A stretch of DNA of 64,000 bases from Vulcanimicrobiota bacterium (lineage in GTDB: Bacteria; Vulcanimicrobiota; Xenobia; Xenobiales; JADMJV01). The translations under genes and the position numbers were made by a program. Of the stretch, positions 1-63,936 are shown piece by piece (the first letter of the stretch is position 1; each line of letters opens with the position of its first letter). The stretch is from assembly GCA_050250895.1 (NCBI GenBank), contig JBFWNU010000003.1, positions 32,001 to 96,000 of the forward strand, read 5' to 3'. The notes below the pieces were generated by a model, which saw nothing but the letters and a program-made list of their open reading frames with translations, had not been told where the DNA came from and searched no databases.

Positions 1-647
1 AGCGAGGGCTCGAAATCGGCCTTCAAATCAAGCCAGGGGCGCCGCTTTCCTATCCGCAGGAGCTCTTCTGACCCGGCCTGCTGGGGTGAGATCGGGCGTC
101 CGGAAGCGTCGAAGAACTGGTACCCCTCATGGGCCAGCGCGGGAGTCGGACTGTTCGAGGTGTAGAAGTCGCCCAGCGCTACCGCCTGCGAGGTAGAGTT
201 AAGCGAATATTTCCAGCCGTCGACCTCGGCCACCAGGCCTCGCAGAGCAAAGTCGTCGGTCAGGCAGTTGTAGGCGCCATAGAGACCAACCTCTTCGTTC
301 TGTTGCTCGCGGGTAGCCGTGAAGCGGGCTCCGTGACTGGCCAACTCCTTGAGGCCGCTGGCCAATTGGGGCTGGGCCACCGAGTCGACCGCAAGGCCAC
401 CGTGAAGCACCCCCAGTTCGCGCAGATCTTCGGGCGTTCGCACTGGCAAAGCGCCGCCAGCGTCGGGGGTCTTGACCTGCAGATACTGGTCAACCTTGCC
501 GTCTTGCAGGCTTTCGGCGGCTTGGGAGCCGGTTTGCGGCACCACGGGTTCTTGCCAGGGAAGTTTGAAGCGTCTAACTCTTTGAAAGTGTAGGCCGGAA
601 CGGTCGAGTTGCTCGGCTGTATTTCTGTTTGCCGGTTGAATGAACAT
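1..647 (-). CDS. Hypothetical protein, 5' part (runs off the left edge of the window)
   Basis: Manual translation from ATG at 647 gives MFIQPANRNTAEQLDRSGLHFQRVRRF...EEVGLYGAYNCLTDD..., open to position 1. It is absent from the ORF track because there is no stop in the window. Confidence 0.7.
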   Translation of the reverse strand, partial: MFIQPANRNTAEQLDRSGLHFQRVRRFKLPWQEPVVPQTGSQAAESLQDGKVDQYLQVKTPDAGGALPVRTPEDLRELGVLHGGLAVDSVAQPQLASGLKELASHGARFTATREQQNEEVGLYGAYNCLTDDFALRGLVAEVDGWKYSLNSTSQAVALGDFYTSNSPTPALAHEGYQFFDASGRPISPQQAGSEELLRIGKRRPWLDLKADFEPS

Positions 648-717
648 CTCTGCGTATGAGAGCAGACACGGTCGTCTTTTTGGTTTCGGACATGTTAAAC
701 GGGCGTCCCTGCGCCGG

Positions 718-749
718 ATCAGCATTCTTTAAGGGTGCCGTGGCAGGCT
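718..749 (+). promoter_or_regulatory. Class I promoter (11-bp-spaced half-sites plus -10)
   Basis: ATCAG(718)-N6-TTAAG(729)-N10-CAGGCT(744)-N8-ATG(758). Confidence 0.5.
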
Positions 750-757
750 AGAGGCCT

Positions 758-1474
758 ATGGCCACCATAACTCGCAACTTTGATCGTCCCGTTACTACCC
801 GCAAGCGTCTGGGCGGAGTGCCCAGAGATCGCTATGAGTCTACCTGGTGGCCCAAGCACGGTCTTGGCAAGGTCGAGCGCCGGGCCGGGGCCGAAGGCGG
901 CCCGGTGGACGTCTATCGAGACGTTCCCGAATATGACGAACACGGTCAGCCGCAACTCGAGAACGTCACCGAGACCATCACCGAAGAGCCCTATCAGCCC
1001 GGACGAAGAGGGGTTGCCTGCAGCCTGCTCGGCGCCGTCACCGCCGGGCTGGGCGCAGCCACCCTGCTAGCCGCCGGCCCGCTCGGCATCGTAGTGGCCG
1101 CTGGTCTGGGAGCCTACGCCGGTCAGAAAGTCGGCGAGCATACGGCCAAAGACGACCAGGTCGACGAAGTGTGGGTGGATCGCAAGATCGTCCATCCTCA
1201 CATGGAAGGCCACACCGAATACACGATTCCTGTCCCCGAATTCCGCCGCCGCTACGACCGCGACGGCGAGCGCCACACCGACGTGAGCATTCGAGGCTAT
1301 TACCATCACCACAGCCCGGATATTCGCGAAGAAGAAGTGGGTGAATTCACCGAACCGACCTTGCAGCATAGCCGCAAGGTCACCCCAGGAGCGGCCGCCC
1401 TGTTGACGGCCGGGGCCGGTCTGGCTCTGGGCGTGGCCGTGGCTGCCCTGGATCGTTCTGGAAAACGCGCTTAG
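758..1474 (+). CDS. Hypothetical membrane protein with glycine-zipper-like hydrophobic segments
   Basis: 238-aa ORF with G/A-rich segments (LLGAVTAGLGAATLLAAGPLGIVVAAGLGAYAG and a C-terminal AAALLTAGAGLALGVAVAA). Confidence 0.75.
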   Translation: MATITRNFDRPVTTRKRLGGVPRDRYESTWWPKHGLGKVERRAGAEGGPVDVYRDVPEYDEHGQPQLENVTETITEEPYQPGRRGVACSLLGAVTAGLGAATLLAAGPLGIVVAAGLGAYAGQKVGEHTAKDDQVDEVWVDRKIVHPHMEGHTEYTIPVPEFRRRYDRDGERHTDVSIRGYYHHHSPDIREEEVGEFTEPTLQHSRKVTPGAAALLTAGAGLALGVAVAALDRSGKRA

Positions 1475-1756
1475 CCGCGCCGCTGGGCCGACTCCTCGTG
1501 ATCGTCGGCCCGGCCGCGGCTTGACGGGACCGCCGAGAAGGTTTGGTCGGGAAGCGAAACTGCGACGAAGGTGACCTTCTCGTCGCTCCCTATCGGCGCT
1601 GCGCGCCGCGCCGCTGGGCCGACTCTTCGTGATCGTCGGCCCGGCCGCGGCTTGACGGGACCGCCGAGAAGGTTTGGTCGGGAAGCGAAACTGCGACGAA
1701 GGTGACCTTCTCGTCGCTCCCTATCGGCGCTGCGCGCCGCGCCGCTGGGCCGACTC
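1474..1756. repeat. 131-bp tandem direct repeat (2 full copies plus 21 nt) made of palindromes; REP/BIME-like
   Basis: Units start at 1474, 1605 and 1736 with GCCGCGCCGCTGGGCCGACTC, and the two full copies are near-identical. Internal hairpins are GGGCCGAC-N11-GTCGGCCC, GCGACGAAGG-TGA-CCTTCTCGTCGC and GGCGC-TGC-GCGCC. It lies between convergent genes. Confidence 0.9.
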
Positions 1757-61887: not shown

Positions 61888-62498
61888 TGTCGGACCTGCT
61901 CCAGAAACTGGCTCCCAAGCTGCGTCACGATCTGCGCGGTCCGCTGCTCAACATCAAGATGGGCTTGCAGTTGCTCGAGGGCGACGGCGAGAACGCCGAG
62001 CTGATAAGTTCCTTGTTGGGTGAAGTCGAGCGGGCCCAACAACTGGTGGGCAAGCTGGTCGACCTGGCCGCCGCCGAGGCTCCCAAGAAGGTCGGCATGC
62101 GGCTGGCTCCGGTAGTTCACCAGTTCGCCAGCGAGAGCAAGGTCGAGTTGGGTCAGGTCGATGACCTGACCATCTCGGGCGATCCCGATCTGGTGCTCAA
62201 GACCCTGGGCTATCTCGGTGAGAATGCCCTTCAGGCCGGCGCCGACAAAGTCATGGTCGAGCTGGTTGACGAGGGCGCCGCGGCTCGCTTGACCATTGAA
62301 GATTCGGGTCCTGGACTCGAAGAAGACTTGTGGTCCAAAGTGCTTGAGCCCGGCTTTTCTACCCGCGCCCGCAACGGGCTGGGATTGGCCATCACCCGCA
62401 CCGTCTGCGAGTCGCACGGAGGTTCGATCGAGCTGGGGCGCTCCCAACGCCTGGGTGGGTTGGCCGTGACCGCGCGCTTCGCCAAGGAGACGACGTGA
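61887..62498 (+). CDS. Minimal histidine kinase (HisKA plus HATPase, no sensor domain)
   Basis: RHDLRGPL, ENA, DSGPG and GLGL motifs. Confidence 0.85.
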   Translation: MSDLLQKLAPKLRHDLRGPLLNIKMGLQLLEGDGENAELISSLLGEVERAQQLVGKLVDLAAAEAPKKVGMRLAPVVHQFASESKVELGQVDDLTISGDPDLVLKTLGYLGENALQAGADKVMVELVDEGAAARLTIEDSGPGLEEDLWSKVLEPGFSTRARNGLGLAITRTVCESHGGSIELGRSQRLGGLAVTARFAKETT

Positions 62499-62971
62499 TC
62501 AGCCCTGACACCTTTCGCGCTTGCATGGGACGGTTCGCCACCGGGGTCACGGTGGTGACGACCCGGGCCGGCGATCAGATCCACGGGATGACCGTCAACT
62601 CCTTCACTTCGGTCTCGCTGCACCCGCCCCTGGTGTTGTTTTGTCCCAACAAATTGACCCGCACCCTGGAGTTGATCCGCGAAGGCGGAGTCTTCGCCAT
62701 CAACGTGCTGGCCGAAAACCAGAAAGACCTGTGTCTGCGCTTTGCGGGCATGACCGAACTCGAAGACCGCTTCGTCGGCCTGACCCACCAGCCGGGCCCG
62801 GCCAGCGGATGCCCACTTTTCGACCAGGCTCTGGCCCACCTCGAGTGTCGCAAGGTCGATGAGCGCGAGGCGGGTGACCATGTCATCGTGGTGGGCGAAG
62901 TCATCGGCCTTGACTACCACGACGGCCGACCGCTGCTGTTCTTCTCGAGCGGTTACCCCAGCCTGCGTTAA
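62495..62971 (+). CDS. Flavin reductase family protein
   Basis: FATGVTVVT, SFTSVSL.PP and GDH motifs. Confidence 0.92.
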   Translation: MISPDTFRACMGRFATGVTVVTTRAGDQIHGMTVNSFTSVSLHPPLVLFCPNKLTRTLELIREGGVFAINVLAENQKDLCLRFAGMTELEDRFVGLTHQPGPASGCPLFDQALAHLECRKVDEREAGDHVIVVGEVIGLDYHDGRPLLFFSSGYPSLR

Positions 62972-63000
62972 ACGGTTTCGTGACGCTCCAGCTTTAAGCT
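62969..63000 (+). promoter_or_regulatory. Class I promoter
   Basis: TAAAC(62969)-N6-GTGAC(62980)-N10-TAAGCT(62995)-N6-ATG(63007). Confidence 0.6.
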
Positions 63001-63006
63001 CAGCCT

Positions 63007-63936
63007 ATGCTAGTGCGCATGGCCAGATTTGCTTTGCCCCCGCTGGCGCGGCCGCGAGCGGCCGCGGTGGCCGAGGGACCGGTCGACCTGGTCGAGTTGA
63101 GCGGAGGGGCGGCCCCGGTGGACGCTCCCACGATCGGCGGCGTGGCCCTGCCCCGGTGGGCCCAAAAACCGCTGGCTTTTGGTTGGGACTGCCCGGCCGA
63201 CGAGTTCTCTCGCCGCTGCCGCGAGGCCGTGGCCGGCCTGACGAGCGGCCAGCCCTTAGAGCGGCTCAAACTGGGCGAGAACTTTACCAATTCGGTCTAT
63301 CTGGTGCACCTCGACAACGGCTTGGCGGCTATCTGGAAGCCCGAATCGGGAGAATACGCCCGCCCGTTGCGGGTGAACATTTCCCCTCAGCAAGAGGCTC
63401 GTCGTGAAGTCATGGGCTACCTCCTCGATGCCGCCCTGGGACATCTGGCCCGCGTGCCTCCGCTGGTGCGCCGCCAGCTCGACGGAAGCTGGGGAACCTT
63501 GCAGCTGTTCGTGCCGGGGACGGGACCGGGCCAGCCTTTCGAGGGCACTCCTCGTTATGGGGATGTGGCCGTCTATGACCATGTGGTGGGCAATCTCGAC
63601 CGCCATGATCACAACTGGCTCCAGGACGAGGCGGGTAACATCATTCCCATCGATCACGGCCTGATCTTGCCCGAGAGCAACAGCGCCCAGGGCGCCCACA
63701 ATTTTCTGCTGTCGGAGCCGATCGAACTCGAACCCCGCCATCGCCAGGCCCTCGAAAGACTCCAGCAAAGCTGGCCCCAATTGCAGGCAAGCGCCAGCCA
63801 ATTGGGGCTGCCTCAAGAAACGCTGATGGCTATGCGAGACCGGGTCAAGCTGATGCGGCTCACGGGCCGGACCTCGAACGGCTGGCGGGGCGGGGATGAC
63901 TTTCCCACCTGTTACCAGGCGGGGCTAGCCTTCTAG
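63007..63936 (+). CDS. PI3/4-kinase-like (HipA/CtkA-like) kinase
   Basis: AIWKP, REV..Y, G.LQLFV, NLDRH..N and IDHGL motifs. Confidence 0.82.
   Translation: MLVRMARFALPPLARPRAAAVAEGPVDLVELSGGAAPVDAPTIGGVALPRWAQKPLAFGWDCPADEFSRRCREAVAGLTSGQPLERLKLGENFTNSVYLVHLDNGLAAIWKPESGEYARPLRVNISPQQEARREVMGYLLDAALGHLARVPPLVRRQLDGSWGTLQLFVPGTGPGQPFEGTPRYGDVAVYDHVVGNLDRHDHNWLQDEAGNIIPIDHGLILPESNSAQGAHNFLLSEPIELEPRHRQALERLQQSWPQLQASASQLGLPQETLMAMRDRVKLMRLTGRTSNGWRGGDDFPTCYQAGLAF

Follow-up and report, generated by a model that had tools for sequence, protein, structure and literature searches.

Secretome prediction is built on signals that can be recognised in a sequence, such as those of Sec, Tat, lipoproteins, sortase and C-terminal sorting tags; type III-like signals have resisted being recognised in this way. 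The parts of the literature on which we draw describe a number of the latter. FlgM, whose N-terminal signal is disordered, is a late substrate of flagellar export, and FlgM fusions are secreted (PMC3372961). Salmonella FlgD combines an N-terminal signal, 2-SIAV-5, with a gate-recognition motif that docks at FlhB-C, and the spacing from signal to motif must be at least 19 residues, with substantial export at about 24-30 (Bryant et al. 2022, PMC8983047). The Cia proteins of Campylobacter jejuni are exported through the flagellar type III system (PMC2764114), and a protease, a glucanase and a HAD protein of Lysobacter enzymogenes OH11, tied to the antagonism of other microbes, leave the cell via flagellar type III (PMC7688988). 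For the injectisome of Pseudomonas syringae, the rules given are an aliphatic amino acid or Pro in position 3 or 4, no acidic residue among the first 12, and more than 10% serine in the first 50 (Schechter et al. 2012, PMC3338616). Here we describe an N-terminal leader encoded in a 64,000-nucleotide stretch of a Vulcanimicrobiota genome (the window, that is, the whole stretch analysed, C3:32001-96000; C1 and similar labels denote contigs, and positions without a label are those of the window). The leader is a floppy tag of 30-40 residues whose two-part motif is borne by about 150 unrelated proteins of one genome and is met again across a class that has large genomes and is little known.

The genome (9.5 Mb, 63% GC, 17 contigs) is that of a large-genome soil or sludge bacterium of Xenobia, a class within Vulcanimicrobiota. 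An earlier note on the window had drawn attention to nine open reading frames (ORFs) that start with M-x-[IV], and had proposed that they share a leader, attached to unrelated domains, which might be a lineage-wide targeting peptide for an export machine. All nine starts can be read from the translations where the note had placed them, none of the nine ORFs starts with a Sec-type hydrophobic core, and the four patches that it had quoted (ETYVPS, DCFTPS, DRPSID and DLVELS) are all present. In the portions of the literature on Eremiobacterota, Xenobia and Eudoremicrobi that were covered, passages of PMC9259500 among them, no published description of the leader was found.

Results

Definition of the leader and its statistical support

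A hidden Markov model (HMM) of such N-termini was searched over the proteome, much as the earlier note had proposed. It was built in three iterations from 45 seeds, picked by a regular expression out of 21,899 start candidates, and matches were accepted only when model position 1 fell on residue 1. Anchored matches of at least 10 bits were found in 146 genes, about 1.7% of the 8,535 called by hexamer coding potential with greedy removal of overlaps; 168 genes reached at least 8 bits, 133 at least 12 and 90 at least 20. No reversed-sequence decoy reached 10 bits in any of the three rounds, and a single one reached 8 bits, in round 2. The consensus is MRISPPLSTPPTTRPAAAPRPAPAAPAEPQDSVELS, and the layout is M-[RKQ]-[IV], an acid-poor spacer rich in Pro, Ala, Ser, Thr and Arg, and then an anchor, D-x-[VF]-x-[LP]-S, near residue 29. 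The leader is real, and the observation is stronger genome-wide than the window alone could reveal.

Residues 4-30 of the leaders contain 17.9% Pro, 16.9% Ala, 4.2% Leu and 1.5% Ile, and there is no hydrophobic core. Most leaders have Arg, Lys, Gln, Val or Leu at residue 2, and hardly any have a small residue there; Met1 would therefore be expected to stay in place, in keeping with the textbook rule for methionine ahead of a bulky second residue. The codons for Ile3 are ATC (63%), ATT (32%) and ATA (5%), against 79%, 19% and 2% in the genome at large, which points to selection for the amino acid itself, accompanied by the mild rise in AT that early codons usually show. The anchor regular expression matches 78 of the 146 leaders, and in these the anchor Asp lies at median residue 29 (interquartile range 28-31); in the same leaders, residue 3 and the hydrophobic residue of the anchor are a median of 27 residues apart (interquartile range 26-29), a narrow spacing that is partly built in, since an HMM favours uniform length.

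The M-x-[IV] start can also be judged apart from the HMM. Among 1,233 unambiguous starts, defined as those whose first start codon is also the best by coding potential and whose next candidate is at least 25 codons off, 22% are M-x-[IV]; within the window the figure is 14% (9 of 65 genes), so this start alone is not above chance there. In the genome, residue 3 is abnormal: it is Ile in 14.0% and Val in 8.0% of the unambiguous starts, as against 6.1% Ile at residue 2, 5.8% at residue 4 and 3.5% in the whole proteome. Roughly half of the 173 M-x-I proteins that were read have the longer pattern, a polar stretch rich in Pro, Ala, Ser, Thr and Arg followed near residue 30 by an acidic-hydrophobic patch (e.g. 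PDRVELS, GDRFTPS) of the same kind as those in the earlier note.

Two counts are independent of the seeds. Among the unambiguous starts, the strict anchor D.[VF].[LP]S occurs at residues 16-55 in 14/272 M-x-[IV] proteins and in 10/961 others (odds ratio 5.2, p=1e-4); the strict form replaced a looser expression that had proved too permissive (odds ratio 1.7). The second comes from the promoters described below: counted from the listing of 42 strict double-box matches in the genome, 28 stand ahead of a gene that begins M-x-[IV]. An HMM built without the first six residues, which tests residue 3 with little power, gave 81 matches of at least 10 bits; 61 of these were training ORFs, and the 20 new ones had mixed starts, M-I-x forms included.

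Occurrence of the leader in relatives

Relatives were searched with a 40-position model from an alignment of 22 leaders, with at most 49-150 candidates scored per genome, a blank being counted as not found. At E<=0.01 the leader matched in 24 of the 41 genomes of the order, almost always from model position 1 (11/15, 5/5, 7/19 and 0/1 genomes in families f1 to f4, respectively). In a small-genome genus, g5, there were weak matches in 2/10 genomes at E<=0.01 and in 0/10 at E<=0.001. When the matched N-termini were read at 11 loci, eight began M-[KRQ]-[IV] and had anchors of the D-x-V-x-L-S type. Across the phylum, 14 of 151 genomes were positive at E<=0.001, all of them in the same four families, which belong to the window's own class, and at this threshold the leader was not found in 108 genomes of 17 other families (f5-f21). 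The leader is thus present in related genera of the same order, and the earlier description of it as lineage-wide stands.

Orthologues were most informative for the GHL10 glycosidase (C3:568864-570339). All nine close homologues read (58-67% identity) bear the leader or its anchor, including one (64% identity) named Candidatus Xenobia bacterium by its source, and all 11 more distant homologues read (53-60% identity), several of them named Myxococcales, Nannocystis or Deltaproteobacteria, have a lipoprotein or Sec signal peptide in the leader's position. The leader here occupies the place of its relatives' secretion signal and is therefore probably an export tag. The earlier note had held that homologues in other phyla with the same extension would refute its proposal. 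None was seen for GHL10. The GH32/68-like sequence P0135, which looks low in GC and compositionally unlike the lineage, has an M-K-I...D-R-I-T-L-N head. Most of the relatives, of about 320 residues, of the leader-bearing GH32/68-like enzyme (C4:328634-329782) begin directly at the catalytic domain, and a few closer ones have an M-K-I or M-S-I head and an anchor-like patch.

The 11 homologues of the window protein 63007 (34-88% identity) all have a polar N-terminal extension; M-x-[IV] is the start of 7 of the 11 read, and in 10 the first 60 residues still contain an anchor-like [DE]-x-[VFY]-x-x-[SG]. A homologue search with the other window protein that has a full leader, 24789, returned only itself. 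The leader behaves as a portable module, fast-evolving in sequence and constant in layout.

Proteins that carry the leader

The mature parts of the 146 proteins fall into 116 clusters in an all-against-all BLASTP comparison, the largest with 8 and 7 members. The proteins are 70 to 1,651 residues long, with 50/146 below 200, and a Pfam family was found for 31 of the 60 scanned. Among them are hydrolases that are usually exported (GHL10, GH32/68-like, S8 subtilase with prodomain, C11 clostripain-like, M1, M13, M4/M36-like, amylase and lipase-like) and enzymes of a cell-interior type (adenylate kinase, cytidine deaminase, RNase II, PRK/uridine-kinase-like, ADP-dependent kinase, PI3/4-kinase-like, FAD oxidase, lipid desaturase and PAD-type deiminase). 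For the leader-bearing adenylate kinase, cytidine deaminase, RNase II and uridine-kinase-like protein the genome holds other paralogues, whose N-termini were not read. An uncharged hydrophobic segment follows within 70 residues of the leader in 81/146 proteins, many of them small and with Gly/Ala-rich segments, and none follows in 65/146. Several leaders precede a textbook Sec or lipoprotein signal peptide located 45-60 residues from the N-terminus, as in the M48 peptidase of the window.

Seven paralogous leader proteins of 943-1,583 residues (at C1:1928038, 1933347, 2565518 and 3571944, C2:534158, C3:421480 and C8:217341) share a second block, G-P-x-G-P-x-L-A and then F-x-x-P-W, and match no Pfam family above cut-off. 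The window protein 647(-) resembles this family by eye.

Promoters of the leader genes

TTTCAG, GTTAACA and CTAGACT are enriched upstream of leader genes. They form two classes of promoter, TTTCAG-N5-TTTCAG-N9-12-cTAGaCT (class 1, the strict double-box form counted above) and TTAACA-N5-(G/T)NAAC (class 2). The last hexamer of class 1 lies 5-8 nt before the start codon, which predicts leaderless mRNAs. Both classes are direct repeats 11 bp apart that stand in place of the -35 element. Such 11-bp repeats are the usual type of site for winged-helix response regulators, and the class 1 and class 2 boxes may be sites of this kind. The earlier note had paired the leader with a shared promoter, and the two do overlap: where the upstream gap was 100 nt or more, a box was present for 14/63 leader genes and for 134/2,958 others (odds ratio 6.0, p=1e-6). 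The hexamer TAnnnT precedes the start by 5-8 nt in 60/146 leader genes, and 63/146 have a Shine-Dalgarno-like site. Canonical -35/-10 spacing was seen in only 4/146, which makes direct repeats 11 bp apart with a -10 element the better description of these promoters.

The strict repeat TTAAC-N6-T[TC]AAC has 29 strand-wise matches in the 9.5 Mb, some sites counting twice because the core is palindromic. Four of the 29 are two sites, matched on both strands, that lie ahead of flgB and of an flgE-like gene in the main flagellar cluster; four others precede three HMM leader genes and the short-head ORF 15940 of the window. A 151-residue ORF divergent from flgB, C1:1476511-1476966 (+), shares the TTAAC repeat region with it and has an internal D-V-F-T-P-S patch like the anchor. 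The window also has a perfect TTAACA-N5-GTTAACA repeat (19390-19405) between the divergent genes 18562-19344 (-) and 19460-20134 (+), neither of which has the leader.

Candidate export machines

The genome encodes two full-length FlhA proteins, both inside flagellar-type clusters. One flagellar set is contiguous (flgBC-fliEFGHIJ-fliK-flgE-fliMNOPQR-flhBA), and a dispersed set includes flagellin, FliD, FliS, a sigma-28-like factor, MotAB and FlgM; several sigma-28-like paralogues are present. Flagellar-type gene sets lie at C1:121-130 kb, 545-593 kb and 1.459-1.476 Mb, and only the dispersed set is tied to FlgM and to sigma-28-type promoters, with GCCGATAA-like -10 elements upstream of flagellin, flgM and motA. 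The genome had no match for TssC, phage sheath or VirB4; of injectisome-type parts the search covered secretins, of which there are two. FlhA is present in all 41 genomes of the order and FlgM was detected in seven. The genome's own FlgM scores 60.7 bits to PF04316 (Pfam) and 54.3 bits to TIGR03824 (NCBIfam); it begins M-T-V-S-G, continues with about 35 Ser/Thr/Pro-rich residues and reaches S-V-E-V-S where the Pfam match begins, at residue 39.

Of FlhA, eight extra ORFs have the cytoplasmic C-terminal domain alone (PF00771 positions about 322-656); they lie at C6:529401, C1:2013982, C1:2475431, C7:121919, C1:1126976, C7:117253, C1:2008860 and C8:31716. At least one such ORF occurs in every genome of the order, and large genomes have up to about 13. 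An ORF of 984 residues, C1:2473655-2476609, joins this domain to a piece like the N-terminus of FliG. These paralogues were considered as partners of the leader and set aside, only the C7 pair adjoining leader genes. A third FliF-like gene (C2:555009-556562; 29% identity, over the full length, to the FliF of the main operon) was likewise set aside, there being no flagellar genes around it. The T2SSF domain has 147 matches, two per protein, which gives about 75 platform paralogues of the GspF/PilC type, one of them in the window (28742-30046, +). The usual copy number of this platform is 1-4 per bacterium.

Leader genes of the window

Features of the window are collected in Table 1. The leader that the earlier note had assigned to all nine ORFs is full in 63007 and 24789, absent from 647, 37681 and 47600, and borderline or partial in the rest. 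Its statement that the leader is attached to unrelated domains is borne out genome-wide by more than 100 unrelated families, but fails for the CHAP protein 47600, which shares only the M-x-I start. Pfam gave no family above cut-off for 647, 10686, 15940, 36099 and 37681 (for 37681 a sub-threshold I-set match only). Just beyond the window starts a further leader gene, 63938-64435 (-), of 165 residues (MKISAIS...), whose 37.8 bits are among the genome's best; it is convergent with 63007, the two stop codons being 2 nt apart.

Table 1. Leaders, leader-associated genes and promoter elements of the window, in order of position
Position	Strand	Feature	Basis or score
583-647	-	M-F-I-Q start without spacer or anchor; gene leaves the window	1.1 bits, not a leader by the model
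10621-10686	-	Short head only, MQIQRFTPTS..., then Gly/Ala-rich membrane region; gene 10318-10686	2.5 bits, HMM positions 1-22
15891-15906	+	Class-2 box TTAAC-N6-TCAAC, upstream of 15940; one of the 29 strand-wise matches	
15928-15933	+	-10-like TATGCT, 6 nt before ATG of 15940	Sequence read
15940-16005	+	Leader head only, MLIS...RRPAP, then directly a Gly/Ala-rich hydrophobic stretch; ORF 15940-16299	6.5 bits, HMM positions 1-22
20136-20168	+	Class-1 promoter TTTCAG-N5-TTTCAG-N10-TAGGCT, ends 6 nt before ATG of 20175; probably leaderless mRNA	Sequence read
20175-20300	+	Degenerate leader, MQVS...QETYVPS	Domain score 6.3 bits, HMM positions 1-39
20175-21104	+	Gene, M48 peptidase	Pfam PF01435 (Peptidase_M48)
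20313-20399	+	Lipoprotein-type signal peptide after the leader: basic stretch, hydrophobic core, L-T-G-C at residues 72-75	Translation
24728-24743	+	Class-2 box TTAACA-N5-GCAAC, upstream of 24789	Sequence read
24777-24782	+	Shine-Dalgarno AAGGAG, ahead of 24789	Sequence read
24789-24887	+	Full leader, residues 1-33, MRIQ...PDCFTPS	HMM 17.0 bits
24789-25379	+	Gene, Dioxygenase_C-like	Pfam PF00775
35698-36099	-	Gene, 133-residue Gly/Ala-rich membrane protein	No Pfam family
36001-36099	-	Borderline leader, MKIA...DRPSID	9.9 bits, HMM positions 1-32
37667-37681	-	M-N-V-Q start only, not a leader	-5.1 bits
47600-47614	+	M-N-I-F start of CHAP protein, then Gly/Met-rich region; not a leader	-2.4 bits, Pfam CHAP
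62967-62973	+	GTTAAAC box, upstream of 63007	Sequence read
62995-63000	+	-10-like TAAGCT, 6 nt before ATG of 63007	Sequence read
63007-63117	+	Full leader, residues 1-37, MLVR...PVDLVELS	HMM 27.7 bits, E 3e-6
63007-63936	+	Gene, PI3/PI4-kinase-like	Pfam PF00454 (PI3_PI4_kinase)

Discussion

The leader described here is probably an export or targeting tag of some kind. It is lineage-wide, it is found on more than 100 families, and it stands in the place of the signal peptides of orthologues, all of which are properties expected of a targeting peptide; the earlier proposal of such a peptide for an export machine gains from these findings, although only two of its nine ORFs have the full leader. 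The FlgM-like architecture of the leader, and a promoter box that leader genes have in common with the flagellar operon, lead us to name the flagellar type III gate as its most likely reader, a choice that we make tentatively and with more doubt than confidence. The best joint explanation, to which we give somewhat less than an even chance, is a lineage-specific N-terminal export tag that takes a non-Sec route and is read by a flagellar-type gate. Both the causation of export by the leader and its reading by the flagellar gate are things that we infer.

Such a tag could work through two recognition elements. The first would be the extreme N-terminus, made of a retained Met, a second residue that is bulky or basic and, as the third, Ile or Val, both of them beta-branched, and the second element the short, strand-like anchor D-x-[V/F]-x-[L/P]-S, with the disordered spacer rich in Pro, Ala, Ser, Thr and Arg holding the two about 27 residues apart. 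On this view the protein would bind through its anchor to the gate's cytoplasmic face or to a chaperone associated with the gate, and the hydrophobic N-terminus would then enter the gate, after the model for early flagellar subunits and FlgM.

A number of observations weigh against export through a flagellar-type gate. The likeness to FlgM, which the earlier note had aptly suggested for the N-terminus, is seen as a common layout in the organism's own FlgM and in six from relatives, but is statistically undetectable: hhalign gave leaders against FlgMs a probability of 0.4%, the leader HMM scores FlgMs only 0.6-5.4 bits, and none of 22 leader peptides matches FlgM, even at E<=10, or another known family in Pfam or NCBIfam, the only listing being a domain of unknown function (DUF) at E=1.8. 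Among 60 full-length leader proteins, none matches FlgM in Pfam at E<=0.001. The leader is missing from the flagellin, rod, hook and FliK proteins of the organism itself. Every genome of the order has FlhA, yet the small-genome genus g5 is nearly without leader matches, so flagella do not predict the leader. Many carriers are ATP-using enzymes of a cytoplasmic type, and intact Sec or lipoprotein signals after the leader are odd for a type III substrate. No neighbour family of leader genes, chaperone-like or other, recurs above two random controls. The anchor differs from the gate motif of early flagellar subunits, as compared below. Finally, the seeds had to have M-x-[IV] and no acidic residue among the first 12, and both features are therefore circular within the 146.

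Some of these points would be accommodated if the leader were an export tag read not by the flagellar gate but by an undescribed machine, for example a system around the GspF/PilC-type paralogues or one with no known homologue, a possible but unlikely alternative. Besides the flagellated small-genome relatives and the organism's own flagellar substrates, which do without the leader, it has in its favour that the leader is recognisable from its sequence, unlike most type III signals, and that about 75 GspF genes are a very unusual expansion, four of which adjoin leader genes. However, four among 530 neighbour genes is the chance expectation for about 75 copies in 8,535 genes, no recurrent neighbour was found above the random controls, and GspF-type platforms are not known to conduct unrelated proteins.

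The leader might instead act within the cytoplasm as a regulatory tag, whether a degron, a peptide that binds a holdase or chaperone, or an FlgM-like piece that binds sigma-28, and so control the stability or timing of co-regulated genes. The cytoplasm-type carriers (adenylate kinase, cytidine deaminase, RNase II, ADP-dependent kinase and the PI3/4-kinase-like protein) and the tie between the leader and specific promoter boxes fit this idea, as does V-x-L-S, the first block of the FlgM domain model, in a genome with several sigma-28-like paralogues. A leader ahead of a complete Sec or lipoprotein signal would likewise act on the cytoplasmic side and be removed along with the signal peptide. 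We nevertheless find a regulatory tag rather improbable: in the GHL10 family a signal peptide gives way to the leader, and the subtilase with prodomain and the clostripain-like and M4/M36-type peptidases have no other export signal, cytoplasmic retention being unusual for such enzymes. Far less probable still is a device for import into target cells. The N-termini of colicin- and pyocin-type bacteriocins are disordered translocation domains whose TonB box, a D/E-T-x-V-V-type strand, pairs with the C-terminal domain of TonB. The leader, as a disordered N-terminus with a short strand-like epitope (D-x-hydrophobic-x-hydrophobic-S/T) on many enzymes and small glycine-zipper membrane proteins, could be imagined to bring toxins in by the same means; this would leave exit from the producer unexplained, the carriers include housekeeping-type enzymes and lipoproteins, and no immunity-like neighbour recurs. 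An artefact, with starts placed too far upstream in low-complexity DNA or a chance likeness among the Pro/Ala-rich N-termini of a GC-rich genome, is suggested by a caller relying on coding potential alone, which has 20175, 24789 and 15940 start downstream of the leader, and by the leader's atypical composition, but is largely refuted, and to our minds scarcely credible, given the lack of decoys at 10 bits or more, a leader that begins exactly at the start codon, the TAnnnT hexamers and Shine-Dalgarno-like sites ahead of so many leader genes, and a layout kept in orthologues at 34-88% identity and in other genera.

Returning to export as the preferred reading, a larger proposal can be built on it, though we think it unlikely to hold as a whole. 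Xenobia may have a dedicated, undescribed sorting pathway with its own N-terminal address on about 2% of the proteome, running parallel to Sec, by which hydrolases, nucleotide- and lipid-modifying enzymes and small pore-type membrane proteins leave the cell, perhaps into prey or a host. A leader followed by a Sec or lipoprotein signal would in that case act in sequence with it, much like the two-part presequences of organelle proteins. A predatory or antagonistic lifestyle has been suggested for a related marine family, in the portion of that study on which we draw (PMC9259500). If the leader directs export, it would supply a ready list of the secreted or injected arsenal of this lineage, a natural counterpart to engineered FlgM secretion vectors, and a compact sequence with which to find the machine. 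Should its reader be a new machine, a new secretion pathway would have come to light.

Among the closest known systems, Sec and lipoprotein signals occupy the same N-terminal place and are interchangeable with the leader in GHL10 orthologues, but require a basic n-region, an h-region and a cleavage site in the first 30 or so residues, which the leader does not have. Some leaders contain Arg-Arg; this is followed by 15-25 polar residues, unlike the S/T-R-R-x-F-L-K and h-region of a Tat signal, and no Tat model of Pfam or NCBIfam matches the 22 leader peptides. The injectisome rules, in the portion of the report used here (PMC3338616), agree in part: an aliphatic residue at position 3 or 4 with an acid-free first 12 is found in 142/146 leaders and in 2,773/7,658 other genes, a comparison that is partly circular, whereas the serine rule holds for only 42/146 leaders, and the rules contain no conserved downstream anchor.

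As described in the sections of the FlgD study that we draw on, early flagellar subunits have a small aliphatic residue at the extreme N-terminus and a second short motif, as does the leader with its median spacing of 27. Their gate motif is F-x-x-x-hydrophobic, where the leader has D-x-[VF]-x-[LP]-S, and the leader's carriers are not flagellar parts. FlgM is alike by eye in all seven cases (the organism's own and those of six relatives), with M-x-[IV], about 35 polar residues and V-x-[LV]-S. The leader differs in being richer in Pro and Ala, in having Asp before the anchor and in its fusion to more than 100 other families; it does not have the sigma-28-binding helices, and unrelated domains or membrane segments follow in their place. 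The Cia proteins and the Lysobacter proteins may be likened to the leader proteins, being enzymes or effectors without Sec signals whose amino-terminal sequence directs exit through the flagellar gate, as we predict export for the leader. In the parts of those reports covered, their substrate sets are small and have no recognisable consensus leader, whereas in this genome a recognisable leader stands on about 1.7% of the genes.

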